NCBI GenBank assembly: GCA_964626635.1
Contig: CAZVFY010000004.1
Coordinates: 530-64,529 of the forward strand
Origin: an uncultured Candidatus Saccharibacteria bacterium
Lineage (GTDB): Bacteria > Patescibacteriota > Minisyncoccia > Phycocordibacterales > UBA918
Direction of reading: 5' to 3'
Length of the DNA: 64,000 nt
Shown here: positions 1,176 through 48,323 of the stretch, in pieces
Numbering within the stretch: position 1 is the stretch's first letter
Layout: every line of letters starts with the position of its first letter
The notes under the pieces: generated by a model
Seen by the model: only the letters and a program-made list of their open reading frames with translations
Database searches by the model: none
Told to the model about the DNA's origin: nothing
Program-made: the position numbers and the translations under genes

Positions 1176-3377
1176 TTGGCTAGCGTCAAGACGCTTTTTC
1201 TGTATAATGCGACAATGACAAAATCCAATCACACCCCGTCTACACCTGACCAGTTGAACGAGCAGACAGCTGACCCAGTTGTGAAGAATGAAACGACTGA
1301 GCCGATTCTTGCCACTGATAACAAACCTACCAGCGAAACTGATAATAAAGAAGAACCTAAGGTTGCTCCAAAACCAAAACCCAAAACGCGCATCCCCAAG
1401 CCAGCTGACGGCCTGCGCCGCGTGCGGCAGCAGATGCCGCTAGGGCCGGGCAATTTCTGGAACAATATGCTGTCGCTCGTGCTGCTGCTGGTGTTTGTAA
1501 TGCTGGCATTGTCGTTCTTCAGTGATAGTCAACAGACACCAGAAGAGCTGACCCTCTCGCAAGTGGTCGAACAAATCCAGGCCGGTGAGGTCAGCAACAT
1601 TATTGTGCGCGGCTCAAACCTCGAGGTAAATTACAACGAGGAAGGTCGTAATCCCGGCGAAGCCCGTCGCGAGATCGATGCGTCTGTGACCGAATCGCTC
1701 AGCAATTTGGGTGTGACGCCGGAACAATTAGTGGCAGTGCAGATTGATGTCCAGCGCGAAACTGGTCTCGGGTACTGGCTGGGCGTATTTGCGCCGTTCT
1801 TATTCCCGTTACTATTTTTAGGAATTATCATCTGGTTTTTCCTACGGACGGCCAAGGGGGCGGGCATGCAAGCGCTTAATTTTGGCAACAGCAAAGCGCG
1901 CATGATCGACCCAGAGGACAACAAAAACAAAGTCACCTTTAAGGATGTCGCTGGCGCCAAAGAAGCCAAGCGCGAACTTGAGGAGATCGTTGATTTTCTT
2001 AAGAACCCGAAAAAGTTCCTCGACATCGGCGCCGAGATCCCCAAGGGTGTCATGATGATGGGTTCACCAGGAACCGGTAAGACCTTGCTGGCGCGCGCGG
2101 TGGCGGGTGAAGCGGGCGTGCCGTTTTTCTCGATCAGTGGATCGGAATTCGTCGAGATGTTCGTCGGCGTTGGTGCCTCACGCGTACGAGACCTATTTAA
2201 TATGGCCAAAAAGAGCGCGCCAGCAATCATCTTCATCGACGAGATTGATGCTGTCGGCCGTATGCGTGGTTCAGGTATGGGCGGTGGTAACGATGAGCGC
2301 GAGCAAACGCTCAACCAGATTTTAGTCGAGATGGATGGCTTTGAACCAAATGCTAAAGTCATCGTGATGGCGGCGACGAACCGGCCAGACGTGCTCGACT
2401 CGGCGTTATTGCGACCGGGGCGATTTGACCGCCGGGTCACTATCGACCTACCAGACCGGGGTGACCGCGTCGAGATTCTCAAGGTTCACGCTAAAAAGAA
2501 GCCGTTACAGGACGATGTGAATCTAGAAGTCGTCGCGCAGCGGACGCCGGGTTTCTCGGGTGCGGATCTGTACTCGCTTATGAACGAAGCTGCCATCTTG
2601 GCCGCGCGCGAAAAACGCCAAAAAGTCGGACAGTTCGACATTATTCGCTCGATCGAAAAAGTCATGCTCGGCCCCGAGCGCAAGTCCCACGTACTCAGCA
2701 AGCACGAAAAGTTAGTCACCGCGTACCACGAAGTCGGCCACGCGCTAGTGGCGTCAGTCTTGCCGTACGCCGACCCAGTCCAAAAGATCAGTATCATCAG
2801 TCGTGGCCGTGCAGCTGGCTACACGCTCAAGCTGCCTGATCAAGACCGCCGCATGCACACCAAAAAAGAGTTCATGGATGATATCGCCATGACGCTCGGG
2901 GGGTACGTAACCGAAAAGCTTGTGTTCGGCGATCTCTCGACTGGACCGAGTAACGATTTGCAGGTCGTTGCAAACCTCGCCCGTGACATGGTCACAAAAT
3001 ACGGTATGAGCGACTCGCTCGGGCCGATCGCCCTCGAGGGTACAGGCGGCCGGATGCTCGGTGGCGGTGAAAGTGTTGATCGGGGCTACAGTCCGCAGGT
3101 GGCCAAGGCGATTGATGACGAAGTGACTGCCATCATCGAGTTAGGTAAGCAAGAAGCGTCAGCCGTACTGACTAAATACCGCGTTGCTCTCGACAAGATC
3201 TCTGAACGATTGGTCGAAGTTGAGACCATGGAGCGGGAGGAGTACGAAGGCCTGCTCAAGCAACACGGCGTGCCGATCAACGATGCCTTTGAGGCCATCT
3301 ACGGTGAACCACGAACTAGCGAAGACCCGACTCGTGGCCTCGAAGTCCGCCCTGGCGAAGGCGCGAGCGCCAAGTAG
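1176..3377 (+). CDS. ftsH: ATP-dependent zinc metalloprotease FtsH
   Basis: Two TM segments, AAA+ Walker A GSPGTGKT, second region of homology, HEVGHA zinc motif. N-terminal Pro/Lys-rich low-complexity extension. Alternative start at 1215 is preceded by TATAAT at 1203-1208. Confidence 0.9.
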
Positions 3378-6934: not shown

Positions 6935-7011
6935 TGGTCCGCCAGCCAGGATTCGAACCTGGGACCACGGAGGTATAAGCTCCGCGCTCTAACCAACTGA
7001 GCTACTGGCGG
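6935..7011 (-). tRNA. tRNA with anticodon UAU (predicted tRNA-Ile reading AUA), CCA encoded
   Basis: Reverse complement CCGCCAG-TA-GCTC-AGTTGGTTA-GAGC-G-CGGAG-CTTATAC-CTCCG-TGGTC-CCAGG-TTCGAAT-CCTGG-CTGGCGG-A-CCA folds as a canonical cloverleaf with 7-bp acceptor, TAT anticodon and A37. Confidence 0.7.
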
Positions 7012-7437: not shown

Positions 7438-9618
7438 TTATTCCATGTGCAGTGCTTCGCCAATGTTGGCGACTCGTTCAACGATGAACGGAAATTGTTT
7501 CTGTAAGTCTGGATGGGTTCGCACCAGATGCTGCGCCTCATTGCGTGCGGCTTCGACCAGACGTAAATTGCGGATGGCTTCCATGCCTAGGTCAGACAGG
7601 CCCGACTGCTTGCCGCCGTACAACTCACCCGAGCCACGGAACTCGAGGTCGTGCTCGGCCAGCTCGAAACCGTTGGCGGCAGTCGCTAGTGCCTTGAGGC
7701 GGTCGCTGGTTTTCTCGGACTTGCTCTCGGTAACGGCAAAACAATACGGCTGGTGCGTCCCGCGGATGACACGCCCGCGCAGTTGGTGTAACTGTGACAG
7801 TCCAAAACGTTCGGCACCCTCGATGATGATGTTGGTGGCATTAGGTACGTTGACGCCGACCTCGACCACGCTAGTGGCGACCAGCACGTCGATCTGGTGG
7901 TCATTAAATGCTTGCATGACAGCGTCTTTTTCGGCTGGTGTCATGCGGCCGTGGAGGACACCGATACGGTACTCGCTGAACTCGGACTCACCAAGGCGTT
8001 TGGCTTCGGCGGTCACTGATTTCATATTCAGGGCGGTAAGTTTGTCAGGGTCAGGTTCGTCAATGCGCGGACAAATGATATACGCCTGGCGACCCGCGGC
8101 TAGTTCGCTGCGGACGTGTGCGTACATGTCGGCCTGCTGCCCGGGGCCGATGACTTTGGTAATAACGGGCTTGCGCCCGGCGGGCATTTCGTCGAGCAGG
8201 GTAATGTCGAGGTCACCATAGATAGTGAGTGCGAGGGTGCGGGGAATTGGTGTCGCGGTCATGCTGAGGAGGTGCGGTATGCGGGCGTCTTTTTTTGCCA
8301 ACTGTTTGCGTTGATTGGTGCCGAACCGGTGTTGCTCGTCAATGATGACATAGGCAAGGTGCTTAAATTCAACTGATTTATAAATAAGCGCGTGCGTACC
8401 GATCAGGATCGGCACCTCACCATTTTTGACCCATTTCAGTAACTGCGCGCGCGAGATCTTGGTCGGTTTAGTTGGGTCGGTTTTGCTCGGGAACTTGTAA
8501 CAGCCGCTACCAGTGATCAGGCCGAGCTGGATCGGGAGGTGGTGAAAGTATTCGATGAATGATTCGAAGTGCTGCTTGGCGAGGATTTCGGTTGGGGCCA
8601 TGTAGGCGACTTGGAGGTTGCCATATTCAATTTTCTTGCCCGTTCCTTCTGGCGGCCGCGATGTTGCGACGGCGTAGGCGGTGGTCGCTGCAACGGCCGT
8701 TTTACCCGAGCCTACGTCACCTTCAAGTAGGCGGGACATGGCGTGGTTACCCCCAAAATCATCCAAGATCGCCTTGATAGATTTCTGCTGACTACCGGTT
8801 AGCGAGAAGGGGAAGCGGTCAGTGAACGCCGCCAAGTGATCATCGTCAGTCTGAAACGAGTACGTAGTCGCTGCGTTGGCGGCAGCGCGGTTCTGGGCGT
8901 TTTGGATTTGAATATAAAATACTTCCTCAAACGCGAATCGCTTGCGAGCGACCTCGGCGTCTTTGGCTTTTTTTGGGGCGTGGATCATCGGGAAGGCGCG
9001 ATCGAGCGTCGGCAGGTGGTACTTATCGAGGATCGCGGCCGGTATCGGGTCGACCAGAGTGGTGTGCACGTTTTTTTCAAAACACTTTAGGATGGTGTGA
9101 TAAATCCACTTGCTCGTGATGCCTTTGGTTTCGCGATAGACGGGATAGAACGTGTCGTCCATTTGTTCTGATCCAGCAAATATGTTGTCGTGACGGTCGA
9201 TTGGCAAGCTGTCGAGTTTTTCAACCTCGGGGTTCGATAGGTACAGCTTGCCGTCGCTGCCAGCGACTTTCCCGGCCAGTTTGACGTACATGCCGTCGAC
9301 ATACATTTTGGCCATGTACGGCTGGTTGAACCACATGATCTTAATTTTGGCCGAGCCGTCCTCGACATAGCCTTCGGCGATGGGGCGCTTACTTTTCCAC
9401 GCTTTGCGAGTCTTGAGGCCAGATAGCTGCCCGTACACCACGGCCTGTTGGTCTTTGACTAGTCCGTCGACTGACTGGATATCGGCAATGTTTTCGTAGC
9501 GGGCGGGCAGGTGATACAAGAGATCCGCGACGGTCACGATCCGCAATCGCTTTAGCGCTTTTTGGTGGGCTGCGCCTACACGGACGTGGGAGGCGAGGGG
9601 GTCGGAGAGTTGCATCAC
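7438..9618 (-). CDS. recG: ATP-dependent DNA helicase RecG
   Basis: N-terminal wedge domain, helicase motif I GDVGSGKT, motif II DEQHRFG, C-terminal helicase motifs; ~726 aa. Confidence 0.9.
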   Translation of the reverse strand: MMQLSDPLASHVRVGAAHQKALKRLRIVTVADLLYHLPARYENIADIQSVDGLVKDQQAVVYGQLSGLKTRKAWKSKRPIAEGYVEDGSAKIKIMWFNQPYMAKMYVDGMYVKLAGKVAGSDGKLYLSNPEVEKLDSLPIDRHDNIFAGSEQMDDTFYPVYRETKGITSKWIYHTILKCFEKNVHTTLVDPIPAAILDKYHLPTLDRAFPMIHAPKKAKDAEVARKRFAFEEVFYIQIQNAQNRAAANAATTYSFQTDDDHLAAFTDRFPFSLTGSQQKSIKAILDDFGGNHAMSRLLEGDVGSGKTAVAATTAYAVATSRPPEGTGKKIEYGNLQVAYMAPTEILAKQHFESFIEYFHHLPIQLGLITGSGCYKFPSKTDPTKPTKISRAQLLKWVKNGEVPILIGTHALIYKSVEFKHLAYVIIDEQHRFGTNQRKQLAKKDARIPHLLSMTATPIPRTLALTIYGDLDITLLDEMPAGRKPVITKVIGPGQQADMYAHVRSELAAGRQAYIICPRIDEPDPDKLTALNMKSVTAEAKRLGESEFSEYRIGVLHGRMTPAEKDAVMQAFNDHQIDVLVATSVVEVGVNVPNATNIIIEGAERFGLSQLHQLRGRVIRGTHQPYCFAVTESKSEKTSDRLKALATAANGFELAEHDLEFRGSGELYGGKQSGLSDLGMEAIRNLRLVEAARNEAQHLVRTHPDLQKQFPFIVERVANIGEALHME

Positions 9619-9685
9619 TCTTGATCATACCGCAAACACGGCTAGTTGCGACGTGCTTCATTTCTATAGTTGTCCCCGCCAGCGC

Positions 9686-9714
9686 TTGCATCTCTACAAA
9701 TGTTCGGGTATAAA
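9686..9714 (+). promoter_or_regulatory. near-consensus sigma70-like promoter (TTGCAT-N17-TATAAA)
   Basis: Read directly: -35 at 9686-9691, -10 at 9709-9714. Confidence 0.4.
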
Positions 9715-9761
9715 GAAAGGACCGGAGGCAATCACGCCAATGGACAACCAAGGAGTTCGCT

Positions 9762-9941
9762 ATGCGACATCCCAGCACCTTCACATCGTCCGGGTCGACC
9801 TTTTCGCACGCCGCCGTGACCCACGCGCCCGCCGACTCGCATCGCGGCAGCCCCGGCCACAGCGCGACGCACCTGCGCGGCGTCAAGACGGCCAAGATCG
9901 ACGGCGCCGACGCGACCAGCCTGCAGGACATGACCTGCTGA
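9762..9941 (+). CDS. small His-rich ORF (59 aa) with strong SD
   Basis: AAGGAG 7 nt upstream of ATG; GC-rich; followed by GC hairpin (10007-10030) and rho-independent terminator (10071-10094). Below the ORF-track length cutoff. Confidence 0.3.
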   Translation: MRHPSTFTSSGSTFSHAAVTHAPADSHRGSPGHSATHLRGVKTAKIDGADATSLQDMTC

Positions 9942-10070
9942 ACGGTGACCGCCGGCGGGCTGGACATCCCGCCAATTACCGCGACGAGGAGTCGCACTTG
10001 TCCTGAGGGGAGTCGCTTCGGCGACTCCCCAACACACCACCGCTCACCCGAGCAACAGTACATCCGATTT

Positions 10071-10094
10071 CCAGCGAACGCTGGTTTTTTATTT
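10071..10094 (+). terminator. rho-independent terminator (CCAGCG-aa-CGCTGG + T-run)
   Basis: Perfect 6-bp stem followed by TTTTTTATTT. Confidence 0.5.
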
Positions 10095-10361
10095 ATACGA
10101 AAAATTGCCAGTTGTTTCCACGTAACGATGGGGAGGTGGTACGAGGTTTTGCAGACAACCGTGTGAGGCGCTTTTTTATCACTGTGTTTACAACATACGT
10201 ACAGTTTGATACATTGTCCCTTTCATCGAATGGATGGCGTACATTTTGGAGGAATACATGCCGTTGGATACCCCGCCCGCATGGTGGCAAGAAGCCTATG
10301 GTTCGCGTCGACCGCCGCGCGGATCGAGTCAATCGCCGTTCACGGCATAAGCTGCTTGAGC

Positions 10362-10400
10362 GGCCCGGCGCGCATCAAATGATGTGCGCCGGCCTTTTCA
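10362..10400 (+). terminator. rho-independent terminator (GC-rich ~12-bp stem + TTTTCATT)
   Basis: ccggcgcgcatc / gatgtgcgccgg stem with one G:U, then T-run; immediately follows a 30-codon ORF (10258-10350) that has a GGAGG SD. Confidence 0.5.
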
Positions 10401-10422
10401 TTAGAGCTTTGCACCACAGCTA

Positions 10423-10450
10423 TTTACAAATACTAAAATTAATGTATATT
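10423..10450 (+). promoter_or_regulatory. putative promoter (TTTACA-N16-TATATT) for the VPLPA-CTERM gene
   Basis: AT-rich promoter-like hexamers 40-70 nt upstream of the ATG at 10493. Confidence 0.35.
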
Positions 10451-10492
10451 TAGGTGTCGCCAATCCGGCGATATAGCACCAAGGAGGTCTTT

Positions 10493-11209
10493 ATGACCAA
10501 ACTAGCTCTTTTCATTAGCAAGCCGGTTGGCTTGCTGCTGGCAGCGCTTTTGACGCTACCACTGGCCACGCAGGCCGCGACCATCAGCATCACCCCGTTC
10601 GACCCAGGCGCCTACACGGCCGCCGTCCAAGGCGGCGTGGTCGAGGATTTCGAGTCGTCGCCAACCGGCGTCTGGGATCCCAACATTGGGACCAGCGTCG
10701 GCACTTTCTCGCCGGTGGGCGGGGTTGGCACCGGCGCGGTCTGCCGCAAGTAGTCCGGCCGACCATGTACCGATCTCTTCCTCAGCGATACGCTGCGGCG
10801 AGGGCAAGGCAACGTCGTCCCCGACGGCGGCGCCAAGTCGCTATCGTCGAACGATACCCTGGGTATCGTCTGGGACGCCAGTCTGCTGAGCGGACAACGC
10901 TTCCGCGGTGTCGCGGTGGCGCTCAGTGATCCGGCCGATCAGGGTGCGCTCTTCACGGTCGCAACTGGCGGCTCGAGTGCAACGCTCGTGGGTCAGGCCA
11001 GCGGCAACCAGCATTTGGTGCTGGTGGACTTCGGACGACCGACGAGGAGTGCGACGATCATGTTCTCCAACAACGAGGTCAATGATGGCTTCACGCTCGA
11101 TGGTGCGACGCTGGTCGACGTGACGCCAGTGCCATTGCCGGCCAGTGCCGCGCTGCTGCTCGGCGCCATTGCCGGGCTGGGCGTCATGCGGAGCCGGAAG
11201 ACGGCGTAA
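10493..11209 (+). pseudogene. VPLPA-CTERM (PEP-CTERM variant) sorting-domain surface protein interrupted by a single in-frame TAG at 10751-10753
   Basis: AAGGAGG SD; N-terminal signal peptide MTKLALFISKPVGLLLAALLTLPLATQA. ORF-track pieces 10454..10753 and 10916..11209 are in the same frame with no other stop between them. C-terminus VTPVPLPASAALLLGAIAGLGVMRSRKTA is the VPLPA motif + TM + basic tail. Confidence 0.55.
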
Positions 11210-11313
11210 GTACCAATACCTGTGCTCGCCAATATGCGAACACTACCTGCCGGGATCCTTTATTGGCTCCCGGTTTTCTTTTTATAAATTACCAGTACGG
11301 TATACTGGTTCAT

Positions 11314-12510
11314 ATGAAAAAACAGCGAGCTTCAACGGCTAAAAAAACCAATAGTAGTGCCGCCACCAAACATCCAGATTACAACCACCTTGCGCTCGAG
11401 CTGCATCGCAGCTTACGTGGCAAGATTGAGGTCAAAGCTAAAGGTAAGCTAAAAACCAAAACCGACTGGAGCACTATGTACTCGCCAGGGGTCGGCGCAG
11501 TATCAAGGCATCTGGCCGACAAACCAGCCGACGCCGCTCGGTACACCGCACGCGGCAACACAGTCGCGGTCGTGTCCGACGGATCGGCGATTCTCGGCCT
11601 CGGGAATCTGGGGCCCACAGCCGCCTTACCCGTAATGGAGGGAAAGTGCGCGATTTTCAAGGCAATGGCAGACATCGACGCTTGGCCAATCGTGCTGGAT
11701 ACTCAGGAACCTGAAGAGATCATCGCCGCGGTCAAGGCGATCGCACCGAGCTTTGGTGGTATCAACCTAGAGGATATCGCGGCGCCCAAGTGCTTTGAGA
11801 TCGAGGAACGCCTCAAGGCCGAGCTAGGTATCCCGGTCATGCATGACGACCAGCATGGGACGGCGATCGTGGTGCTGGCTGGGCTAATCAATGCCGCCAA
11901 GGTCACCGGGCGTAAGCTCAAGCAAATGAAAGTAGTCATTGTTGGCGCGGGTGCGGCCGGGCGCGCGGTGGCGCTGATTCTTGAGACAGCCGGCTTGACG
12001 CAGGTCGTTGTGGTCGATAGCCAGGGCGCGATCGCTCGTGGGAGAGTGGGTATGAACGCCTACAAGCAACACCTCGCCGAGCACACGAACCCAGACGCCG
12101 TCACTGGCGACCTCGCGAGCGTACTGACCGGGGCCGACGCGGTGATCGGCGTCTCCGGGCCAGGCACCATTACTCCGGCACACGTTGCGTCCATGTGCCC
12201 AGACTCGATCGTCTTTGCTCTCGCCAATCCAGTACCCGAGATTATGCCCGTGGACGCGCAGGCCGCTGGCGCCGCCGTGGTCGGTACTGGCCGCAGTGAC
12301 TTGCCAAACCAGGTCAATAACTCGCTCGCGTTCCCGGGGGTGTTCCGCGGCGCGCTCGATCGCGGAGTAGGTGCAATCACCGATGATATGAAGGTAAAAG
12401 CCGCCAAGAAAATCGCCGCGCTTATTCCGAACCCAACCGCGCGTAACGTGATCCCGAGCAACAATGCGCCGGGCTTGGTCGAGGCAGTTGCGAGCGCGAT
12501 TCGCTTTTAG
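11314..12510 (+). CDS. NAD(P)-dependent malic enzyme (short form)
   Basis: Malic enzyme N-terminal and NAD-binding domains (…VYSPGVGAVS…, VVIVGAGAAGRAVA); start set at MKKQ. Confidence 0.85.
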   Translation: MKKQRASTAKKTNSSAATKHPDYNHLALELHRSLRGKIEVKAKGKLKTKTDWSTMYSPGVGAVSRHLADKPADAARYTARGNTVAVVSDGSAILGLGNLGPTAALPVMEGKCAIFKAMADIDAWPIVLDTQEPEEIIAAVKAIAPSFGGINLEDIAAPKCFEIEERLKAELGIPVMHDDQHGTAIVVLAGLINAAKVTGRKLKQMKVVIVGAGAAGRAVALILETAGLTQVVVVDSQGAIARGRVGMNAYKQHLAEHTNPDAVTGDLASVLTGADAVIGVSGPGTITPAHVASMCPDSIVFALANPVPEIMPVDAQAAGAAVVGTGRSDLPNQVNNSLAFPGVFRGALDRGVGAITDDMKVKAAKKIAALIPNPTARNVIPSNNAPGLVEAVASAIRF

Positions 12511-13625: not shown

Positions 13626-13712
13626 GGAGAGTTGGCTGAGCGGTCGAAAGCGCATCCCTGCTAAGGATGTAGGGGAGCAATCCCCTCGAGGGTTCGAATC
13701 CCTCACTCTCCG
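13626..13712 (+). tRNA. tRNA-Ser (anticodon GCU)
   Basis: Cloverleaf with 7-bp acceptor GGAGAGT/ACTCTCC, anticodon loop CTGCTAA, long variable arm, T-loop TTCGAAT, discriminator G. Confidence 0.85.
13695..13712 (+). repeat. attL-like 18-bp direct repeat (cgaatccctcactctccg) = 3' end of tRNA-Ser
   Basis: Identical 18-mer recurs at 38863-38880. Confidence 0.8.
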
Positions 13713-13772
13713 CACCGAATACTGGTTATCGGCAGACCCGTAGGCTCTTATTTAGAGCCATATAAAATTGCC

Positions 13773-19797: not shown

Positions 19798-20508
19798 ATG
19801 GCGACGCAACAAACATCAAATTGGATATCTCTCTCAGACATGATGACTGGTCTCATGCTCATCTTTTTGTTGATTGCTGTATTAGTTACCATGCAGATTA
19901 CTCAAGAACAAAAACAAAGACAACAGTCAGTTGCGGAGTACCAAGAAATTAAAGATGATATTTACGCTGATCTAAATGAAGCATTTGCTTCTAAGGAAGA
20001 TGAGTGGGGTATCGCTATTACCCGTGATCTTGTGATCAAGTTTGAGAACCCTGATCTTCTATTTGGAGTTGATGAATCAAACCTTAAAGAAGAATATGAA
20101 GTTATTTTAGATGAATTTGTTCCACTGTATATTGGCATCATAAATAAAGAAGAGTATAAAGATCGAATTAAAGAAGTGCGAATCGAAGGTCATACAGCTG
20201 ACGTGTCGGATGCTCATCCGACATATATGAGCACCATTTCTCTGTCTCAAAATAGATCCAATGCTGTTTTAGAGTATATTCTTGAGAGTAACTTTTTCAA
20301 TTCTTTAGACAACGACCAGCAGAGCAAGCTAAGATTTTGGTTTAGTGCGAATGGTCTAGGTAACGGACGAACTTTAGACGAAAATAGCCAGTTTACATAC
20401 ACAACCAATGCTCCGATCAGTCCAAATTCAAGAAGAGTAGAGTTTAGGATTCTCACAGATAGTGAGAGTTTGATAGACGAAATTTTTAGCCAAGATATTA
20501 ATATATAA
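19798..20508 (+). CDS. MotB/ZorB-like protein (TM plug + OmpA-like peptidoglycan-binding domain)
   Basis: N-terminal LSDMMTGLMLIFLLIAV resembles the MotB plug/TM with a conserved Asp; C-terminal OmpA-like SLSQNRSNAVLEYI…RRVEFRI. Confidence 0.65.
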   Translation: MATQQTSNWISLSDMMTGLMLIFLLIAVLVTMQITQEQKQRQQSVAEYQEIKDDIYADLNEAFASKEDEWGIAITRDLVIKFENPDLLFGVDESNLKEEYEVILDEFVPLYIGIINKEEYKDRIKEVRIEGHTADVSDAHPTYMSTISLSQNRSNAVLEYILESNFFNSLDNDQQSKLRFWFSANGLGNGRTLDENSQFTYTTNAPISPNSRRVEFRILTDSESLIDEIFSQDINI

Positions 20509-20512: not shown

Positions 20513-21550
20513 ATGAATGAAACAACGTCAATTATTCTCGTAATCTCCGTAGTAGTTTCCATTTGTATATTTGTGAGTCCGTGGTTCTTGCGTTTTTGGA
20601 AAAATTCTTCTGAAATTCAGACCACTGTTACTACCATGGGTATTGTTGGTACTTTCACAGGTATCTTAATTAGTCTTTCAAACTTTGACGTTGCAAATAT
20701 CAGCACCACAATCCCGCAGCTAATTAATGGTTTGCAATTAGCATTCCTCACTTCCATTGCTGGAATCGGAACGTCGTTAATTGTAAATCTATTTCCAAGA
20801 TTTTATTTAATAAAGGTTGGAACAGAAGAAGAGACTTTATCTGATACGGAGTTATTAAGTGCGATGCATGCTGAATTGATAAAGCTTAACAATAATATTT
20901 CTGGAGATAGTGACTCTACTCTTATTACACAAATCCAAAAACTGCGTACCAGTGTCACTGACAAACAAGATGAACTGAAGAAATCATTTGATCAGTTTGC
21001 TGAGGGAATGGTCAACAGCAATATTGATGCGCTTGCAGAAGCAATTGACAAAGTAATGGGTGAATTTAATACCACTGTTAATGAAAAACTTGGAAAAACT
21101 TTTGAGGACTTCAGAGCAGCTGTCGACAATCTTAATCAGTGGCAAGCCGAGTATAAAGGCCAGATTGATTCTCAAACTGAAAACATGAAGTCTGTCCACG
21201 AATCACTAGGTGCGGTGACTGACAGCATGAATGCAGTGGCTGAATCAATGAACGAAATCACTGTTATTAAACAGAAGTTTGATGAGCTGCTAGAACAACT
21301 AAATGCGCAACTCCAGGGCAGTCTTGATTTCTCAACTTCTATGAAAGACCTTTCTTCTGAGTTGGAAGGTTCTGGCAAGATGATTCGAGACGAGCTTAAT
21401 GAAATTACTCGCGGTGCAGCTGATGAAATGGAAAAAGTGATAAACAAAACACTGGCTGACTTTGGTAGCAATCTTGCATCCATTTCAGGTAAATTAGCTG
21501 AAGACTTTGAGCGTGTACAGCAGATGCTAGAAAATTCATCAAACCGTTAG
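20513..21550 (+). CDS. MotA/ExbB/ZorA-like proton-channel protein with long C-terminal coiled-coil
   Basis: TM1 then MGIVGTFTGIL…GLQLAFLTSIAGIGTSLIVNLF (MotA/TolQ/ExbB signature) followed by ~200 aa heptad-rich tail. Confidence 0.55.
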   Translation: MNETTSIILVISVVVSICIFVSPWFLRFWKNSSEIQTTVTTMGIVGTFTGILISLSNFDVANISTTIPQLINGLQLAFLTSIAGIGTSLIVNLFPRFYLIKVGTEEETLSDTELLSAMHAELIKLNNNISGDSDSTLITQIQKLRTSVTDKQDELKKSFDQFAEGMVNSNIDALAEAIDKVMGEFNTTVNEKLGKTFEDFRAAVDNLNQWQAEYKGQIDSQTENMKSVHESLGAVTDSMNAVAESMNEITVIKQKFDELLEQLNAQLQGSLDFSTSMKDLSSELEGSGKMIRDELNEITRGAADEMEKVINKTLADFGSNLASISGKLAEDFERVQQMLENSSNR

Positions 21551-21553: not shown

Positions 21554-22372
21554 ATGGATAAGCGGGAGCTTAATCAGAAACTGGCAGACATCGCAAGCAC
21601 TTTTTCGGTTGCCAAGAGCAAAATAAAAGCTCAGGATGTTGGTTTCAAAATCACACCTCGTGAACTCAAGGATCCAATGGATAAATTCAATGCTGGTAAA
21701 CCAATTACTGGTGTTGAACTGCAAAAGATTTCTGAAAATTGGCAATCAAAAGCTCCACTCGTTGATGAGGATGGTAACGCGTTTGTGCTTTATATTCCTG
21801 ATTGGCAATTCAATTTCAATAGAGGGAGAAATAACCCTGCTGATTTGCATAAATACCATGTTTCATGGTGCGGTGTACTTGAATATATGCAAGGCGCAGG
21901 TCGTTTCAAGCGGTACATCAAGAAAACTAATATTGAATCAAATATCTTTCTAGGTAAGCAAGCTGATGACAGAAACGCAGAAAGTGTCTTATACGCTTGT
22001 AAGACCTGCAGAAAGAAGATGGCGGAAGTGGCAGGTCATAGTCTCTATTTCAACGTTGAAAATATGGACATACTCAAGTTTTTTGCGAAGTACGGCAAAC
22101 AAGATATGCTCGACCCTAAGACTAATCGCTTATATTCTGTGGTCTATCCCAAGCACTGGCAAGAAATTTCTAAAAAATACCGTGAACAAGCTAATTGGAC
22201 TTGTGCAGAGTGTCATAAATCGTTTGAGCATAATCGAGCCATGTTAGATGTTCATCATATTGATGGTGTTAGGAGTAACGTAAAAAATACTAACTTAAGG
22301 GTTTTGTGTAAGGATTGTCATGCAAAACAACCGATGCATGGACATTATAAACAACTTATAAAAAATACTTAA
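21554..22372 (+). CDS. HNH endonuclease (ZorE-like effector candidate)
   Basis: C-terminal CAECHKSF…LDVHHIDG…N…NLRVLCKDCHA HNH motif with two CxxC pairs; 3-nt gap after the MotA-like gene. Confidence 0.65.
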   Translation: MDKRELNQKLADIASTFSVAKSKIKAQDVGFKITPRELKDPMDKFNAGKPITGVELQKISENWQSKAPLVDEDGNAFVLYIPDWQFNFNRGRNNPADLHKYHVSWCGVLEYMQGAGRFKRYIKKTNIESNIFLGKQADDRNAESVLYACKTCRKKMAEVAGHSLYFNVENMDILKFFAKYGKQDMLDPKTNRLYSVVYPKHWQEISKKYREQANWTCAECHKSFEHNRAMLDVHHIDGVRSNVKNTNLRVLCKDCHAKQPMHGHYKQLIKNT

Positions 22373-22384: not shown

Positions 22385-23737
22385 TTAGGCGCTGTTTAGC
22401 AATTCCACCACTTTATCCTCAACCAGCACCTGACTCTTAAAGCATCCCATCAATTCACGCTTTTCTTCATTCGAGCCTTCTTTGAGCAGATACTTGGTGT
22501 ACGTTTTTAGTTCGACATCTTTGTGTTTCTCCCTATTTCCTGCAACACCCAGTACACCTTTGTGGAATTTATTAAAACGTTTAAGTTCTTCCTCGAATTT
22601 TATTTGCACGCCAGTTCTGTTTAGGTCAATTTTATCCATCAGTTTTATAAGCTGTTCTACCAAGTCTTCCTCTCGTAAATATGGATTTTTGCAGTGTCGA
22701 TCTTTTGATCGACCGCATCCGTAGTATATATACTTGGCAGACGTACCGTCCTTCAGCTGTTTGTATTTCTCTTCCGCAGAAATTCCCGAGCCACACAGTC
22801 CACAGGTCATGAGCTTTGTGAAAGCAAACTCTCTAGATTGACGAACAATATTGTCTCGTTTGAGTTGCTCTTGCACTTTATCAAAAAGCTCTTTGTCGAT
22901 AATTGGTTCATGTTTGCCGTCGTACCAATTACCACTCCCACGGGGGTATTCAAACTTGCCGTAGTAGAAGGTGTTTTGCAGTGTGCGGTATACGTTACTC
23001 AACGCTAATGGCTTGTTGCCTCTAGTATGAAAATTAAGCTCAAAGCGTAGCCAGTGATATATCTTTCGACCAGACCATTTATCATTTCCCATCTTCTCAA
23101 AGATTTGTCGTACTACATGAGCTCTTTCTGTATCAATAATTACCTGACACTTCTTATCAATATGTTTTTGGTTCAGGTATCCAACTGGCGCTACACCCGG
23201 CCACAATCCCATCTCACACCGTGTCCGCAGTCCGCGCTTCACGTTTATGCCTCGGTTATCGTTTTCAAGTTTTGCTTGACTACCAAGAATCATCAAGAGA
23301 AACTTCTCGTTTGGGTTGTTAGTGAATGTTTGGCTAAAGGTACGTATCTCATGCAACTTTCCAGCATCCATAAGGTCGACAATCTTTCCCAAGTCCCCAG
23401 CATTTCGTGAGATTCGATCCGGTGCCCACGTCAGTATGCTATTGTATTTACCATCGTATATCTCACTGACAATTTCATTAAAGACTGGCCTACAACCAGT
23501 CTCCTTGGCTGAGTGACTTTCTCGCTTCATGGAGACTATCTCCAATCCGTCACGTTCGGCTAGCTGAAGCATTTCCTTAATTTGTGAGTCAATTGACATC
23601 ACTTGTCGCTCTTCACTTTCAGTACTTTTTCTTGCGTATAGGCAATACTTCAGTTTTGTTGTTTCTTCCATACAACCACATTGATGACGCAACAGCCTTG
23701 ATGAGTCCAGAGCGTCCTCGCTCCCTATAGTTGACAT
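22385..23737 (-). CDS. large serine recombinase
   Basis: Resolvase catalytic domain (YARKSTE…SIDSQ), recombinase domain, zinc-ribbon (CGLCGS…CGRS…HC) and coiled-coil; likely true start at internal Met near 23671. Confidence 0.85.
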   Translation of the reverse strand: MSTIGSEDALDSSRLLRHQCGCMEETTKLKYCLYARKSTESEERQVMSIDSQIKEMLQLAERDGLEIVSMKRESHSAKETGCRPVFNEIVSEIYDGKYNSILTWAPDRISRNAGDLGKIVDLMDAGKLHEIRTFSQTFTNNPNEKFLLMILGSQAKLENDNRGINVKRGLRTRCEMGLWPGVAPVGYLNQKHIDKKCQVIIDTERAHVVRQIFEKMGNDKWSGRKIYHWLRFELNFHTRGNKPLALSNVYRTLQNTFYYGKFEYPRGSGNWYDGKHEPIIDKELFDKVQEQLKRDNIVRQSREFAFTKLMTCGLCGSGISAEEKYKQLKDGTSAKYIYYGCGRSKDRHCKNPYLREEDLVEQLIKLMDKIDLNRTGVQIKFEEELKRFNKFHKGVLGVAGNREKHKDVELKTYTKYLLKEGSNEEKRELMGCFKSQVLVEDKVVELLNSA

Positions 23738-25226: not shown

Positions 25227-25440
25227 CCTCCAAACATGAAGCAAGGTGGTCTGGAGTCAAGAACGCAAAAATAATGTTGCGTGCTATAATGCTTTCATCA
25301 CGAGAGTGATTTTGATCTTTTTACAATAGTAAAAGGGCCCAACCGCCGCATATCTTTATGCGATGAGTGGTTCTAAAATCCGACAAAAGTAAAGAGCTCC
25401 TTATGAGTTCACTTTTGTCGGTCCCCAGCAGGAATGTTGG

Positions 25441-27222
25441 GTGGGTTCTTCGGAACCGGCTCGTAGGGAGTTTTTTGCTACCCGAACTGTCCCAACCATC
25501 AATGATGAGTGGATAGAAAAACCGACAAACATGACAAATACAAATACTCAGGATGAACTTCAAGATCGTATTACCGAACTTGAAGCAGAAATTTCAATAT
25601 TAAGACAACAAAAGAAATATGGTCTTGTCTGGGAAGACAAACCTGAAGATGTGGTGATGCAATGTGAGACTCATGTACCAGTTTTGTCAGAGGTCAAGTC
25701 AAAGAAGATATCTGATCAAACAAAGCTTGAAGAGAATATTTTAATTGAAGGTGATAACTACCATGCATTGTCTGTTCTGAATTACACTCATCGTAAGTCA
25801 CTTGATCTTATTTACATAGATCCTCCATATAACACTGGGGCTAGAGACTGGAAATATAATAATGACTACGTTGATAGTGATGATGCATTTCGTCACAGTA
25901 AGTGGCTTTCATTGATGAATCGGAGATTGCTGCTTGCAAGAAACTTGCTGAAAGATAGTGGCTCGCTAATTGTTGCAATTGACGACTATGAGTTAGCTAC
26001 GCTGGGTCTTTTGCTCAAGCAGGTATTACCACACTACGTACAAGACTTAATTATCATTGAACATCACCCACAAGGTGCTGGTTCAAATACTGTTTCGCGT
26101 ACTCACGAATACGCATATTTAATGACCCCACCAGGGCAAGGAATTCCAAATAGACCTCGGCGAGAAGAAAGGCAAATATGGTCACTTCGAAGATCGGGGC
26201 AAGGTGAAAATAACTGGCGAGCATACCGACCTAATCAGTTTTTTGCAATACTTGTAGATGAGAAAACAAGACAAGTCATCGGTGTAGATAAGAAATTATC
26301 TAAGAATGACAAGTACGACCTAGGTGATACGAAAGAGGGTTACAAACGTATCTATCCAATTGATGGGTCAGGCGGTGAGCGTGCGTGGAGATATAGTTTT
26401 GAATCCATGCAACGACTTATTGATCAAGGCAAAGTTGAGTATACCGATCGTGGGGCGCTGGCTGTCGTGAAAGACGTGGTATCAGCAGTGCCAGTATCGA
26501 GTATTTGGACCGGATCAAAATATAACGCCGGATCTCATGGTAGCCAGCTACTGACTAAAATCTTCGGCAAAAGCGCTGCCTTTCCGTATCCAAAGTCTTT
26601 TCATAACACTTATGACTTAGTTGATTTATTTGTTGGTAATAAGCCAAATGCTAAGGTCCTTGACTTCTTTGCTGGCTCAGGCACAACCGGTCACGCTGTT
26701 CTTGAACTCAACAAAGAAGATGGGGGCAATCGGCAGTTTATCCTCTGTACTAATAACGAGAATAAGATCGCCGAAGAAGTCACGTATCCTCGGGTGAAGA
26801 AAGTGATTAAAGGCTATGGCGATGTTGAAGGTCTTGGTGGCTCACTCCGCTACTACAAAACCAAACTAGTCGACGTTGAAAAACTCCAAAAAGTACCTGA
26901 CGAAAAACGGTTGTCGCTCACATATCAAGCTGGTGAGATGATCGCTTTACGTGAGAATACGTTTGAGGAAACTGAGAAGAATGACTGGTGGCAGATTTTC
27001 TCCAGTCAAACTAAAACCGTTGCTATCTACTTCCAAGAAGACAAGCAGAAACTACGTGAGTTAGTAAAGAAACTGAGTACCAAGCAAGAAGTGGTGTTGT
27101 ATGTATTTTCATGGAGCAAGAACGAATACACTAATGAATTTGCCGAGTACGACAACATTCGGGTGGAGGATATTCCTGAGCCAATCATTGAAGTTTACAA
27201 AGAAATTAACCGCCTGAAATAA
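25441..27222 (+). CDS. mod: Type III restriction-modification methyltransferase (Mod)
   Basis: Motif IV DLIYIDPPYNTG precedes motif I DFFAGSGTTGHAV (beta-class permutation); GTG start, alternative ATG at 25531. Confidence 0.8.
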   Translation: MGSSEPARREFFATRTVPTINDEWIEKPTNMTNTNTQDELQDRITELEAEISILRQQKKYGLVWEDKPEDVVMQCETHVPVLSEVKSKKISDQTKLEENILIEGDNYHALSVLNYTHRKSLDLIYIDPPYNTGARDWKYNNDYVDSDDAFRHSKWLSLMNRRLLLARNLLKDSGSLIVAIDDYELATLGLLLKQVLPHYVQDLIIIEHHPQGAGSNTVSRTHEYAYLMTPPGQGIPNRPRREERQIWSLRRSGQGENNWRAYRPNQFFAILVDEKTRQVIGVDKKLSKNDKYDLGDTKEGYKRIYPIDGSGGERAWRYSFESMQRLIDQGKVEYTDRGALAVVKDVVSAVPVSSIWTGSKYNAGSHGSQLLTKIFGKSAAFPYPKSFHNTYDLVDLFVGNKPNAKVLDFFAGSGTTGHAVLELNKEDGGNRQFILCTNNENKIAEEVTYPRVKKVIKGYGDVEGLGGSLRYYKTKLVDVEKLQKVPDEKRLSLTYQAGEMIALRENTFEETEKNDWWQIFSSQTKTVAIYFQEDKQKLRELVKKLSTKQEVVLYVFSWSKNEYTNEFAEYDNIRVEDIPEPIIEVYKEINRLK

Positions 27223-27223
27223 C

Positions 27224-29521
27224 ATGTTTGCCCTCAAACCATTCCAAGAAAAAGCTCTCACTGACCTTCGTTCCGTCTTCCTCAATTTATGGAAGCGCGA
27301 AGAGTCTCAGTTACCGTTGGTATTTCAGTCACCGACTGGTTCAGGGAAGACCATCATGACAGCTCAGTTCCTGAAAGACCTCACCGGCGACCCACAGTTC
27401 CAAGCAGACAAAGCGTTCTTGTGGATTTCATTTAGCCCCGACTCATACCAACAAAGTAAAGATAAACTATATAAATATTATGGTGGTGCAGGCGAACTCA
27501 ACTTGCTCGACATGAACGATCTCTCGCAAGGCAAGTTATATAACAATGACGTCTTTTTTATCAACTGGCAGAAGGTCGTATCAAAAGCCAAAGAGAACCG
27601 TAAGCTTCGTAGTGAGAACGAACAAGGTGTTTGGTTTGATCGATTTATTGAAGCTACTAAGTCAGCTGGTCGTGAGTTAGTGCTATTGGTAGACGAAGCT
27701 CATACGCACTCTAGTACAGCACTAGCACAAGAAATCATCGACCTCATTGACCCACGTATCATCATCAAAATCACTGCCACTCCGCAAGATACTGATGTAG
27801 TGCAAGCCGCTAAACTGGGATCGTATGTACAAGTAGATCGTGAGGCGGTTGTTGAGCAAGGTCTAATTAAAGAAAAACTTATTTTCCAGACCGAAGATGA
27901 GGTGAAGAAGCTTACTTCTAAACACATCTCCAAAGATGAAGTATTGCTCAAGCTGGCTGTACAGAAACGAGCTGAACTTGAAGTGGGTTACCAAGAAGCG
28001 CAAACATCTGTTAAACCACTCGTTCTGATTCAGCTCCCAAACGACTACAAAGAAACTAAAGTAGTTGAAGTAGACTCGAAAGAAGCCTTGGTGCGACAGT
28101 TTCTCTCAGAACAAGGTGTGCTCGATCACCAAATCGCTACCTGGCTATCTGGTCGGCAAGAAAATCTAGATGGTATCGAACGTCACGACTCACCAATTGA
28201 GTATCTCATATTTAAACAAGCAGCCGCGACTGGTTGGGATTGTCCACGAGCTAGTATCTTGGTAATGTTTCGAGAAATTAAAAACCCAACATTTCAGATA
28301 CAAACCATCGGTCGTATTCTGCGTATGCCTGAAGCCAAGCACTACAGTTTGCCACTATTAAACAGCGCCTATATCTACACTGACTACGAGCGAAATACTA
28401 TTATTGATGGTTATGATCGTGACGCTAACGCGAGTTCATTGCCATCGTGGAATCGTATCGAACGAAAGTCAGATATTGAGCCAATAACACTTACGTCTCA
28501 CGACTTATCCCGTACTGACTACAACGACCTTGGCGATAGTTTTCAGCACACTTTTTTGGAACAAGCACACAGTTTCTTTGGTACTACTGATAAAACTAAA
28601 CCAGCAACTGTCTTGAAGCAACTTAAAGAACAAGGTCTAGCGGTCGATGGTGTCCATCAAGATATCATTGTAAACCTTGAAATCGAAGACTATGATAACT
28701 ACCTAGAAAATCTCCAAGCTCATGGAGTGACCGCGTCGACTGAACTAACAGAGACAGATGTTGAGCGTATCTATAATCTTCTGTGCTACGACATCGTTGC
28801 CAAGCAAGACGAAGAAAAAGCTAAGTACGCACCAGCTCGGTCATGGGGCAAGCTCAAAACTGCACTTAATGTGTGGCTTGGAACTGCCACTAAGCTCTCA
28901 CGTTCAGAAATCTACGCTATGGTGGTAAATGATCTCAGTCGTCCAGCTAGCGTACTGCGGCCACTTGTCACGAAATCGTTTATAGCATACCGCCCCGTGC
29001 GTGACGGTGAAGTGATTAAGAAACAAGAACGCCAGCAAACAGTCCGTACGCTTGAACTTCCACCGCAGACACTATTTGTATCAGATGGTATCAAGAAGAA
29101 ATACCAGAAATCCGCCATGGAACCAGTGCTCACACCTGACCATATGCCAGACAATGAGAAGAAATTCATCGACTTTCTCGAAGATCACGCAAAAGTACAG
29201 TGGTGGTACAAAAATGGTGACAAAGGTACGGAACACTTTGCGTTGCCTTACACGCACAATGGCAAACAAAATCTCTTTTACCTTGACTGGATTATCAAAA
29301 CTAAATCATCTCTCTGGATTATCGACACTAAGAGCGGTATGACCGCCAAAGACGCAGAGACAAAAGCGAAAGCTGAGTCACTGCAACAGTGGCTCAAAAC
29401 ACAGACTGGTATTGAAGGCGGTATTGTCCGCCCAGCTGACGGTTGGTTTATCCATCGAGGCAAGAAATATGCCTATGAACTGGAGAATGGCTGGGAGGAC
29501 TTGAACAAAGTGCTGGTTTAG
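27224..29521 (+). CDS. res: Type III restriction enzyme Res subunit (SF2 helicase + C-terminal PD-ExK nuclease)
   Basis: Motif I SPTGSGKT, DEAH, motif VI QTIGRILR; C-terminal YLDWII…LWIIDTKSG nuclease motif; 1-nt gap after mod. Confidence 0.85.
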   Translation: MFALKPFQEKALTDLRSVFLNLWKREESQLPLVFQSPTGSGKTIMTAQFLKDLTGDPQFQADKAFLWISFSPDSYQQSKDKLYKYYGGAGELNLLDMNDLSQGKLYNNDVFFINWQKVVSKAKENRKLRSENEQGVWFDRFIEATKSAGRELVLLVDEAHTHSSTALAQEIIDLIDPRIIIKITATPQDTDVVQAAKLGSYVQVDREAVVEQGLIKEKLIFQTEDEVKKLTSKHISKDEVLLKLAVQKRAELEVGYQEAQTSVKPLVLIQLPNDYKETKVVEVDSKEALVRQFLSEQGVLDHQIATWLSGRQENLDGIERHDSPIEYLIFKQAAATGWDCPRASILVMFREIKNPTFQIQTIGRILRMPEAKHYSLPLLNSAYIYTDYERNTIIDGYDRDANASSLPSWNRIERKSDIEPITLTSHDLSRTDYNDLGDSFQHTFLEQAHSFFGTTDKTKPATVLKQLKEQGLAVDGVHQDIIVNLEIEDYDNYLENLQAHGVTASTELTETDVERIYNLLCYDIVAKQDEEKAKYAPARSWGKLKTALNVWLGTATKLSRSEIYAMVVNDLSRPASVLRPLVTKSFIAYRPVRDGEVIKKQERQQTVRTLELPPQTLFVSDGIKKKYQKSAMEPVLTPDHMPDNEKKFIDFLEDHAKVQWWYKNGDKGTEHFALPYTHNGKQNLFYLDWIIKTKSSLWIIDTKSGMTAKDAETKAKAESLQQWLKTQTGIEGGIVRPADGWFIHRGKKYAYELENGWEDLNKVLV

Positions 29522-30558
29522 TCGGTAGTGACAATCAAGTTTCGTAGTTGTTGTTCAACATCATACGCATCAGCGTGAGACAAGACACCAAGAAATGATT
29601 GCAGTGAAGCATTAAGTTTATCCTCTTCAATCTCACCAGCTTTGTATTCTCGCACTTTTTCAGCAAACTTACGTTGCATCCGTCTTTTAGTTTTAGTCCT
29701 CACCGATCGGTGATGTGGTCGTATGACATAACCAAGAAAATCGATACCTGATTTCAGCGTTCGGATTGATACTTTCTCAGGGTGTAGTTCCAGCTCCAGT
29801 CGCACACGCAAAAATGCTGTGATTGAGGGTAACAGTGATTGTAGATAGTCGTGAGAATCAGAAACTATCACAAAGTCGTCTGTGTACCGAGCATAGTGCT
29901 TCACTTTCAATTCGTGCTTCATGAATTGATCAAACTCGTTCATGTACACATTCGCAAACAGCTGTGACGTCAGGTTACCAATCGGCAGGCCTCGTTGCTC
30001 GAACAATGATTCAGACGTGGAAAAGCTACTCACTATTTCTTGCAGTATCCACTGCACATCTGGGTCAGTAATTTTACGAAACAACAACTCCAACAAAATC
30101 TCATGATCAACACTATCAAAAAACTTCTTAATATCACACTTCAACACAAAACAAGGATGCGTATAGTTTTTGCTCACCTTTCTCGTTATGGTTTCCAGTC
30201 GCTTCATGCCAACATGATTACCTTTACCAATTCGACACGAGAACGAATCGTTAATAAAGGTGGGCTCAAACAATGGGTTCAGGAGCTTAAACAAAGCATG
30301 ATGCACCACCCGATCGCGAACGGTTGCTTTGTGGATGTGTCGCACTTTTGGATCAGAAATGTAGAAACCAAAGTATGGTTGGTGACGGTATGTTTTATCT
30401 CGCAAATCTTCATGCAACGACAACAAGTTTTGCTCCAATCGATACTCAAACAACGCTACGTCTTTCTTCTTGCGTTTACCTTTCTTAAACCGATCCCACG
30501 ACAACAGCAAGTTAGCTGGTGAAATTATTAGTCTGTATAGATTATTAAACGTTTTCAT
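29518..30558 (-). CDS. diversity-generating retroelement reverse transcriptase
   Basis: RT motifs 1-7, including ATVRDRVVHHAL and the DGR-typical GLPIGNLTSQLFANVY; YTDDFVIV (YxDD); strong resemblance to Bordetella phage bRT. Start set at MKTFNN. Confidence 0.9.
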   Translation of the reverse strand: MKTFNNLYRLIISPANLLLSWDRFKKGKRKKKDVALFEYRLEQNLLSLHEDLRDKTYRHQPYFGFYISDPKVRHIHKATVRDRVVHHALFKLLNPLFEPTFINDSFSCRIGKGNHVGMKRLETITRKVSKNYTHPCFVLKCDIKKFFDSVDHEILLELLFRKITDPDVQWILQEIVSSFSTSESLFEQRGLPIGNLTSQLFANVYMNEFDQFMKHELKVKHYARYTDDFVIVSDSHDYLQSLLPSITAFLRVRLELELHPEKVSIRTLKSGIDFLGYVIRPHHRSVRTKTKRRMQRKFAEKVREYKAGEIEEDKLNASLQSFLGVLSHADAYDVEQQLRNLIVTTD

Positions 30559-30906
30559 ATGAATGAATTTGATGTTCCGATTTTTCAAAAGTCATACGAT
30601 TTGTATAAACAAATGCATGAGTATCAAAAACTGATTCCTAAGCACGATAGATACACGGTATATAGTCGCGCCGAAGATTGTTTATTGGCAGTGTTGTCAA
30701 GCTTGTTCAAAGCTAGTGCTGCCAACAAAAGTAACAAACTTATCTTGCTCGAAGAGGCTAGCACCGAACTCAACCTGCTCCGCGTGTTTTTACGACTTCT
30801 CAAAGACATCAAGTCACTCGATAACAACAAATACCTGTCGTTGCAGTCTGAAATAGATGAGATTGGTCGTATGCTGGGTGGCTGGATAAAGTCGGTCAAG
30901 AGATGA
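30559..30906 (+). CDS. avd: DGR accessory variability determinant (Avd, four-helix-bundle protein)
   Basis: …AANKSNKLILLEEASTELNLLRVFLRLL…DEIGRMLGGWIKSVKR aligns with bAvd (…AGKSNQVSKLYAADAGLAMLRFWLRFL…AEVGRILGSWIARVNR); 115 aa. Confidence 0.8.
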   Translation: MNEFDVPIFQKSYDLYKQMHEYQKLIPKHDRYTVYSRAEDCLLAVLSSLFKASAANKSNKLILLEEASTELNLLRVFLRLLKDIKSLDNNKYLSLQSEIDEIGRMLGGWIKSVKR

Positions 30907-34242: not shown

Positions 34243-34635
34243 TTAATAATTTTCGATTAATTCAAACCACGTCTTTACTTCCTTCGACTTACCGTGCTTC
34301 GTGACGTTCTTATACAAAGCCAGCACCACGTTTGGGGTTAGCTTTCGTGCCCACGCACAAGTGTGTTCGACCAACCCTTCTTCTTCGATAATCTTGTTCC
34401 AGTCAGTGAGCGTACCAAGGTCTTTGATATCGTATTCCGCTGCAAAATCTTTTTGAGTTTTGATACGAAGCAAATCAATCACTACTTCGTCCTCAATACC
34501 CATCTTGCGTATCACCGCTTCTGGCTGACCACGAAGAAACGTTGGTAGTGACTTCCATGTTACGTAGGTGGTAAAATCTTGTTTGCGGTACACACCATCA
34601 CTTTTCTTTGGTTGTTCATTGTGGGGTGTGTTCAT
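34243..34635 (-). CDS. hypothetical protein (130 aa)
   Basis: ORF overlapping the methyltransferase gene by 20 nt. Confidence 0.4.
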   Translation of the reverse strand: MNTPHNEQPKKSDGVYRKQDFTTYVTWKSLPTFLRGQPEAVIRKMGIEDEVVIDLLRIKTQKDFAAEYDIKDLGTLTDWNKIIEEEGLVEHTCAWARKLTPNVVLALYKNVTKHGKSKEVKTWFELIENY

Positions 34636-47981: not shown

Positions 47982-47984
47982 TGT

Positions 47985-48320: not shown

Positions 48321-48323
48321 TGT

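Follow-up and report, generated by a model that had tools for sequence, protein, structure and literature searches.

A recently interrupted VPLPA-CTERM gene, probably acquired horizontally, in a Patescibacteria genome

Here we describe a gene for a secreted protein with a VPLPA-CTERM sorting tail that lies in the genome of a Patescibacterium, within the 64-kb stretch of DNA that was analysed (hereafter the window), and that is interrupted by a single in-frame amber codon. We consider it likely that the gene was acquired horizontally and was then inactivated recently by a nonsense mutation (CAG to TAG), leaving a young pseudogene. The original prediction had offered three explanations for the stop codon (a recent pseudogene, a sequencing error or programmed readthrough), and the first is favoured here: the stop is real, the sequence downstream of it is undecayed, and the closest relatives encode glutamine at its position.

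Results

One reading frame interrupted by one amber codon

Positions 10493–11209 of the forward strand form one frame of 238 codons, which translates into 86 amino acids, TAG, a further 151 amino acids and TAA (Table 1). The TAG at 10751–10753 is the sole internal stop of this frame. A first-round word-indexed search recovered 13 full-length homologues (234–291 aa, 35–47% identity), all 13 of which aligned by tblastn as a single HSP covering 10571–11206, across the TAG (best E = 7e-54), well beyond a chance match; therefore, no frameshift separates the two parts. Translation and tblastn both agree with the earlier description of a single TAG in 717 nt with both halves in the same frame. For annotation, the ORF fragments at this locus (86 aa; 97 or 49 aa) should be read as a single gene.

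Table 1. Features of the insertion and of the interrupted gene
Feature	Position	Strand	Basis or comment
Lineage-specific insertion of ~1.7 kb	9616–11313	.	between recG (7438–9615, −) and the malic-enzyme gene (11314–12510, +), which are divergent
orf59	9762–9941	+	59 codons, GC 0.70, GC3 0.90; ACCAAGGAG ribosome-binding site like that of the VPLPA gene
Promoter-like site TTTACA-16-TATATT (AT-rich VPLPA-gene leader)	10423–10450	+	consensus scan, 10/12 matches; putative, pattern only
Shine-Dalgarno sequence AAGGAGG	10481–10487	+	5 nt 5' of the ATG; read off the sequence
Predicted signal peptide, aa 1–28, cleavage after TQA	10493–10576	+	features and homologue alignment
N-terminal part of the beta-sandwich domain, aa 29–86	10577–10750	+	EDFE, VGxF and GGxGxG motifs and Cys84; alignments and structure model
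Premature amber TAG, codon 87	10751–10753	+	most likely from CAG (Gln); three closest relatives have Gln
Rest of the beta-sandwich domain, aa 88–212	10754–11128	+	frame intact, family-invariant residues all kept
VPLPA-CTERM sorting domain (VPLPA, hydrophobic helix, basic RSRK)	11129–11200	+	TIGR03370; model helix
TAA, normal stop of the ancestral full-length gene	11207–11209	+	translation

The strong Shine-Dalgarno sequence that had been claimed for the gene was confirmed, and the same arrangement (ACCAAGGAG-N6-ATG) recurs at 9747–9764 ahead of a second small ORF, orf59 (repeat D2). Together with the AT-rich leader and the promoter-like site, the ribosome-binding site suggests that the gene was expressed in this host. 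The N-terminus (MTKLALFISKPVGLLLAALLTLPLATQA/ATIS) combines a basic n-region with a hydrophobic core and an AxA-like site, and in alignments it lines up with the homologues at their AQA/ATIS junction. These features and the alignment both accord with the signal peptide proposed originally, and the product is predicted to carry an N-terminal signal peptide of typical form.

The protein belongs to a VPLPA-CTERM family

VPLPA-CTERM (TIGR03370) is a variant form of a sorting system, PEP-CTERM/exosortase (EpsH), that was described by Haft et al. 2006 (PMC1569441). The tail of the protein (VPLPASAALLLGAIAGLGVMRSRKTA, the last 26 residues) is tripartite, consisting of VPLPA, then SAALLLGAIAGLGV, then MRSRK, which ends two residues short of the stop. 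A search with the NCBIfam model TIGR03370 bore out the VPLPA-CTERM assignment: the whole protein scored 33.1 bits against a cut-off of 25.35, the tail alone scored 37.9, and the match spans aa 213–236 of 238. The Pfam PEP-CTERM model PF07589 gave 14.6–19.6 bits, under its threshold of 20.7, as expected because VPLPA is a variant motif. As in VPLPA-CTERM proteins generally, the C-terminal 24 residues pass the model and the motif, helix and basic cluster lie at the extreme C-terminus. Unlike in PEP-CTERM systems, the host belongs to the Patescibacteria, there is one copy with zero exosortase genes in 64 kb, and the gene is interrupted by a stop.

Searched exhaustively with phmmer, 1.84 billion cluster representatives gave 251 clusters at E <= 1e-3, mostly of ~235–260 aa, and the best full-length match was 51% identical. 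The TIGR03370 tail is present in all 23 of the family members that were aligned. A metagenome scan for relatives gave at most 43% identity, and a plasmid collection yielded a single weak match (34.8% identity), located on a plasmid from Rhodobacteraceae. A phage vector was also sought, and zero family members were found in the viral contigs of IMG/VR. Two of the first-round homologues are named, as VPLPA-CTERM proteins, one from Roseicyclus sp. and the other from a Pseudomonadota MAG, which, with the Rhodobacteraceae plasmid, matches the earlier remark that the motif family is mostly proteobacterial.

Two described PEP-CTERM families resemble the protein weakly. Similarity to NF038129 links window aa 146–236 with model positions 113–194 at 15.8 bits, far under the cut-off of 65 bits, and 15 of 23 relatives match this model at E <= 1e-3; given these scores, the protein belongs to a related but distinct, unnamed family of ~250 clusters. 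The flocculation-associated PepA of Zoogloea (NF033554) is a small secreted PEP-CTERM-anchored protein tied to exopolysaccharide matrices. Its match to the window protein is weak and centred on the tail (E = 0.0023, 17.8 bits against a cut-off of 80), with the likeness confined essentially to the sorting tail.

The predicted fold is a generic beta-sandwich

A structure model built from the alignment (pLDDT 80, pTM 0.74) has a beta-sandwich of 11 strands at residues 30–208 and a helix at 217–237. The best PDB matches found with Foldseek were CBM-type jelly rolls (E 5e-4 to 1e-2, TM 0.3–0.4, 9–18% identity), including CBM4, CBM22, CBM35 and CBM61 and the accessory domain of the GH87 glucanase 7c7d. 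The model thus resembles a lectin/CBM-like sandwich only generically, without pointing to a specific CBM family or ligand. In the model and the alignment, codon 87 falls in a low-confidence loop between the near-invariant Cys84 and Cys92. Termination there removes eight of the 11 modelled strands together with the membrane anchor, and the ordinary termination product would be 86 aa long, or ~58 aa once the predicted signal peptide is cleaved.

The amber codon is genuine

The exact 86-aa product is recorded in NCBI, JGI and Logan data, and the TAG is present in every contig that was found, from IMG 3300040788, 3300040798 and 3300040799 and from Logan run SRR7428122. The three IMG datasets were assembled separately (PMC8605020). 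The DNA of these contigs is 100% identical to the window, with the exception of the contig from IMG 3300040798 (L006), which is 99.84% identical. Over the 2494 bp compared, L006 differs from the window at four positions, all within 11108–11134, which change T206A, L207P and D209N plus one synonymous site in a variable linker 5' of the VPLPA motif. L006 keeps the TAG, and the stop is therefore common to two haplotypes. The clustering of its four differences within 27 bp resembles a short tract of recombination or of multi-nucleotide change, or else relaxed constraint in a pseudogene. A single study supplied the JGI samples, and together with the Logan run all of this evidence may reflect one population. 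Metatranscriptomes exist for the same mat samples (PMC8605020).

An intact allele was looked for by two routes, an exact look-up of revertant proteins and the exhaustive phmmer search, and its absence rests on these rather than on the first homology search. The seven proteins that a single-base reversion would produce (Q, K, E, S, L, W or Y at position 87) were all absent from ~15 billion sequences, and the only phmmer hits above 52% identity were fragments of the locus itself. Sequencing error, one of the explanations named originally, was rejected on the presence of the TAG in several independent assemblies and two haplotypes; the TAG at 10751–10753 is genuine.

The stop is young and most likely derives from a glutamine codon

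Homologous clusters carry sense codons where the window has the stop, and the residue aligned with codon 87 differs between family members (N, L, S, T, Q). Gln occupies this position in all three of the closest relatives, encoded by CAG in P0029 and by CAA both in P0043 and in the second of two paralogues on contig L104, and these relatives share the C-x-x-Q-S-G...C...LF(L/I) signature of the window. P0029, which is 51% identical, reads GTC TGT AAT GCG CAG TCC GGT where the window reads GTC TGC CGC AAG TAG TCC GGC; the second L104 paralogue is likewise 51% identical to the window protein. With Gln in the three closest relatives, a CAG to TAG transition is the most parsimonious change, and we regard this direction of mutation, deduced from the comparison with relatives, as most likely.

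With a leave-one-out family HMM, the part of the protein after the TAG reaches 1.085 bits per residue, within the range of intact members (0.80–1.48), and its per-residue score divided by that of the N-terminal part (2.02) likewise falls within theirs (1.51–2.52). Family-invariant residues are retained on both sides of the stop. The post-TAG half is thus without decay and the inactivation is therefore young; judged by this conservation, the nonsense event is recent.

The window carries no recoding signal

The window has 66 stop-to-stop ORFs of at least 150 codons, of which TAG terminates 26, TAA 25 and TGA 15, and both of the genes next downstream end in TAG. Genome-wide reassignment of TAG was rejected, since all three stops are used in the window and TAG is the commonest. 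The window encodes Ile-TAT, Ser-GCT and Met-CAT as its only tRNAs, and none with a CUA anticodon was found. We also considered an RNA element in the GC-rich region 9500–11400 and rejected it, as Rfam matches there were sub-threshold only, with E close to 1. Folding of the 120 nt from the TAG onwards was not superior to that of shuffled sequence (z = +0.40). Within the window, to which these tests apply, there is no recoding signal. The programmed readthrough suggested originally thus finds no support in the window, where TAG is a normal stop and neither a suppressor tRNA nor structured RNA was seen.

A lineage-specific insertion at a variable site of the host chromosome

The best matches of the flanking RecG are in Patescibacteria MAGs (labelled Paceibacteria, Kaiserbacteria and Saccharibacteria) at up to 81% identity. 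The window also holds a type IV pilus operon, LigA, GatA and DUF5654, a content consistent with placement in the Patescibacteria. recG and the malic-enzyme gene are divergent neighbours in 34 Patescibacteria relatives, separated by gaps of 11–5257 bp. In seven of the 34 the gap is only 11–111 bp (among them L065, 11; L028, 13; L063, 20; L033, 32; L021, 79; L008, 111 bp), and these include L008 and L065, two of the closest relatives. The loci of 76 relatives contained zero VPLPA homologues, and none of them matched the window at 9600–11300. Relatives that share the recG/malic-enzyme pair do not carry the gene, and the ~1.7 kb is therefore a lineage-specific insertion at a variable site. The horizontal acquisition originally proposed is strengthened by this comparison, which places the gene in a Patescibacterium and finds it missing from 34 relatives that share the arrangement.

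Over the 34 Patescibacteria genomes (among loci L007–L082) the recG/malic-enzyme gap is a hotspot of lineage-specific content. Gaps of more than ~300 bp mostly hold unrelated small genes, and in 24 of 27 their GC content is a few points over the locus mean. Around the insertion itself, a search for target-site duplications and terminal inverted repeats found only short repeats of chance size.

The gap has a GC content of 58.8%, against a window mean of 48.5%. The VPLPA gene, at 64.9% GC and a GC3 of 0.774, is at the top of 24 reference genes in the window, where core genes have 50–60% GC and a GC3 of 0.56–0.68. The earlier description of a GC-rich locus therefore holds for the gene and requires amendment for the locus: 9620–11230 is not uniformly rich but a mosaic, in which GC-rich patches (9800–10060, 10250–10400 and the VPLPA gene) alternate with AT-rich spacers (10070–10250 at 41–44% and 10430–10519 at 38%).

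The remainder of the insertion holds little that can be named. The sole homologue of orf59 among 5.8 billion proteins is itself, and it has no Pfam hit; 3' of it are a perfect 10-bp hairpin with a TTCG loop (10007–10030) and a terminator-like site (10071–10090). A GC-rich 30-codon ORF at 10258–10350 has GGAGG upstream (10248–10252) and a terminator with a 12-bp stem downstream (10365–10392). These two ORFs could be co-transferred orphans or decayed remnants. Remnants of donor genes 5' of the VPLPA gene were sought by comparing 9620–10492 with 20 homologue-bearing loci by tblastx, and the matches were dismissed as compositional noise.

The homologue-bearing loci have 55–72% GC, lie on contigs of up to 4.2 Mb and present ordinary large-genome contexts. 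One contig, L104 (65–76% GC), carries two paralogues and was recovered in a co-assembly, IMG 3300040801, of the same mats. Since the L104 paralogue is only 51% identical, that organism is not the direct donor, and the best identity of any homologue, 51%, is too low to point to a donor. The two L104 paralogues lie at 574–1350 and 2359–3108, ~1 kb apart and directly 3' of the gene for ribosomal protein L23 (11–295). L2 normally follows L23; the context of L104 is thus unusual, or the contig is rearranged or misassembled.

Sorting machinery and cell envelope

The 64-kb window contains no exosortase gene. The only ORFs in it with at least four predicted transmembrane segments are a Na+/H+ exchanger, a prepilin peptidase and FtsX, a result that upholds the earlier statement that no exosortase is visible, and the remaining large ORFs of the window have other assignments. 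A regular-expression scan of six-frame translations found no second PEP-CTERM-like tail in the window, nor was there a second copy of the VPLPA family. Such tails numbered zero in 1.22 Mb of relatives' DNA versus 28 in 0.15 Mb of homologue-bearing loci. A cognate exosortase is probably absent from the remaining genome as well.

PEP-CTERM is described as restricted to bacteria that have an outer membrane as well as genes for exopolysaccharide (EPS) and co-occurs with EpsH (PMC1569441), and its copies per genome are usually many, with a median of eight (PMC1569441). Patescibacteria have been proposed to be without an outer membrane (PMC12102498), and in the literature searched no link between exosortase or PEP-CTERM and Patescibacteria was found. 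The type IV pilus cluster at 45535–54438 encodes PilM, PilB-like and PilT-like ATPases, PilC and a prepilin peptidase, and no secretin gene was found among its scanned ORFs, which is consistent with a cell lacking an outer membrane.

Other features of the window

A low-GC island (35–45%, against 50–60% in the core) extends over 13626–39000, beginning beside tRNA-Ser(GCT) at 13626–13713, and has the appearance of a defence island that has integrated into a Patescibacteria genome. It includes a Zorya type II set in the order ZorB (19798–20508), ZorA (20513–21550) and ZorE (21554–22372), in which ZorA has only 345 aa and the PADLOC ZorA2 profiles have 420–590 positions. The island also encodes a serine recombinase (22385–23737, −), a type III restriction enzyme (27224–29521) with a methylase (25441–27222), a defence-type reverse transcriptase (29518–30588, −) and two further N6/N4 methylases (34616–36672, −). 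A match to the Rfam LOOT RNA at 25336–25457 (+; 55 bits, gathering threshold 46.4) lies within the island directly 5' of the methylase ORF 25441–27222, with a slight overlap. Elsewhere, a tRNA-Ile(TAT) was found at 6935–7011 (−). The TAT anticodon is uncommon in bacterial tRNA-Ile, AUA being mostly read by a lysidine-modified CAT tRNA.

Discussion

The reading that we prefer begins with a family of ~240-aa secreted, CBM-like beta-sandwich proteins with a VPLPA-CTERM anchor, carried by GC-rich Pseudomonadota including those of Rhodobacterales type. A gene of this family would have inserted at the variable recG/malic-enzyme site of a Patescibacteria (CPR) bacterium living in brackish microbial mats, where it would have kept or gained expression signals that work in a Patescibacteria host. 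Its product would have been dispensable in a cell with no visible sorting machinery, and a single C>T change at 10751 would then have converted Gln87 (CAG) to the amber TAG. The 86-aa product is without eight of the 11 modelled strands and the anchor, and the gene is therefore classed as a pseudogene; the function of the VPLPA gene was probably lost with them.

Other explanations have to be weighed against this one. That the TAG is a sequencing or assembly error in a truly intact gene has almost no probability left: one base separates TAG from a sense codon and the comparison was made at the level of assemblies, yet three separately assembled IMG samples and an independent Logan assembly share the 86-aa product and identical DNA, the second haplotype has the TAG, and zero revertant proteins are on record. 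It is just as hard to credit that the GC-rich patch is a contaminating or chimeric piece from outside the Patescibacteria genome. Its composition is unlike that of its flanks, and the mats are also home to a high-GC organism that carries related genes; however, the 1.7 kb is flanked on both sides by syntenic CPR genes, four assemblies from at least two assemblers show identical junctions, relatives are known to vary at the recG/malic-enzyme gap, and the nearest homologue from the same community is only 51% identical, hence the patch does not come from that organism. A functional role for the 86-aa product itself, as a ~58-aa secreted peptide in a cell where an anchor would be useless for want of an outer membrane, is slightly less far-fetched and still very improbable. 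The predicted signal peptide, ribosome-binding site and promoter-like site are intact, and the allele appears fixed in the sampled population. Against this, residues 29–86 comprise three of the 11 modelled strands and probably could not fold alone; no family of short homologues was found, the short entries being fragments of this locus only; and the downstream region, which would be free to decay, is undecayed, pointing to a recent event.

Readthrough deserves somewhat more weight, although it too is improbable. In that case the gene would be functional through leaky or programmed reading of UAG by a near-cognate tRNA such as tRNA-Gln, yielding some full-length anchored protein. The 151 downstream codons are undecayed with the family-invariant residues kept, and the ancestral residue would be glutamine, which is among those inserted at leaky UAG codons. 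However, TAG terminates more of the long ORFs in the window than any other stop (26/66), the window is without a suppressor tRNA and the RNA downstream of the stop is unstructured (z = +0.40), no member of the 251 clusters is known to need readthrough, with sense codons at the position there, and an intact downstream frame is also how a young pseudogene looks. We do not set its probability to zero because selection under readthrough would equally preserve the downstream codons. Less improbable again, though still doubtful, is a long service of the gene in the Patescibacterium as a tail-anchored, lectin-like surface protein or adhesin that preceded a very recent amber loss or a leaky switch. 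This is considered because the protein is distant from every known homologue and its family residues are perfectly conserved. If it were true, the protein could have served in attachment, for instance to a polysaccharide-coated proteobacterial host in the mat; a PEP-CTERM-type substrate would work without an outer membrane, either free of exosortase or with an undescribed CPR exosortase; and a leaky amber switch would restore Gln by near-cognate decoding.

In summary, a horizontally acquired and recently inactivated gene accounts best for these observations, although a long functional residence in the CPR lineage may have preceded the mutation. As a young pseudogene the locus is biologically ordinary, and its sole mildly notable aspect is the presence of an exosortase-type substrate in a CPR bacterium. 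An exosortase or further VPLPA proteins elsewhere in the MAG would raise its interest, because PEP-CTERM is undescribed in Patescibacteria in the literature searched. On the reading preferred here, the locus would provide a clean and dated case of gene flow from a GC-rich, Pseudomonadota-type source into an ultrasmall Patescibacteria genome, followed by inactivation. A sorting substrate would have entered, with no machinery in view, a host in which the target compartment is believed to be missing, and would have been lost by the simplest of mutations, and the recG/malic-enzyme gap marks a variable insertion site in the host clade.
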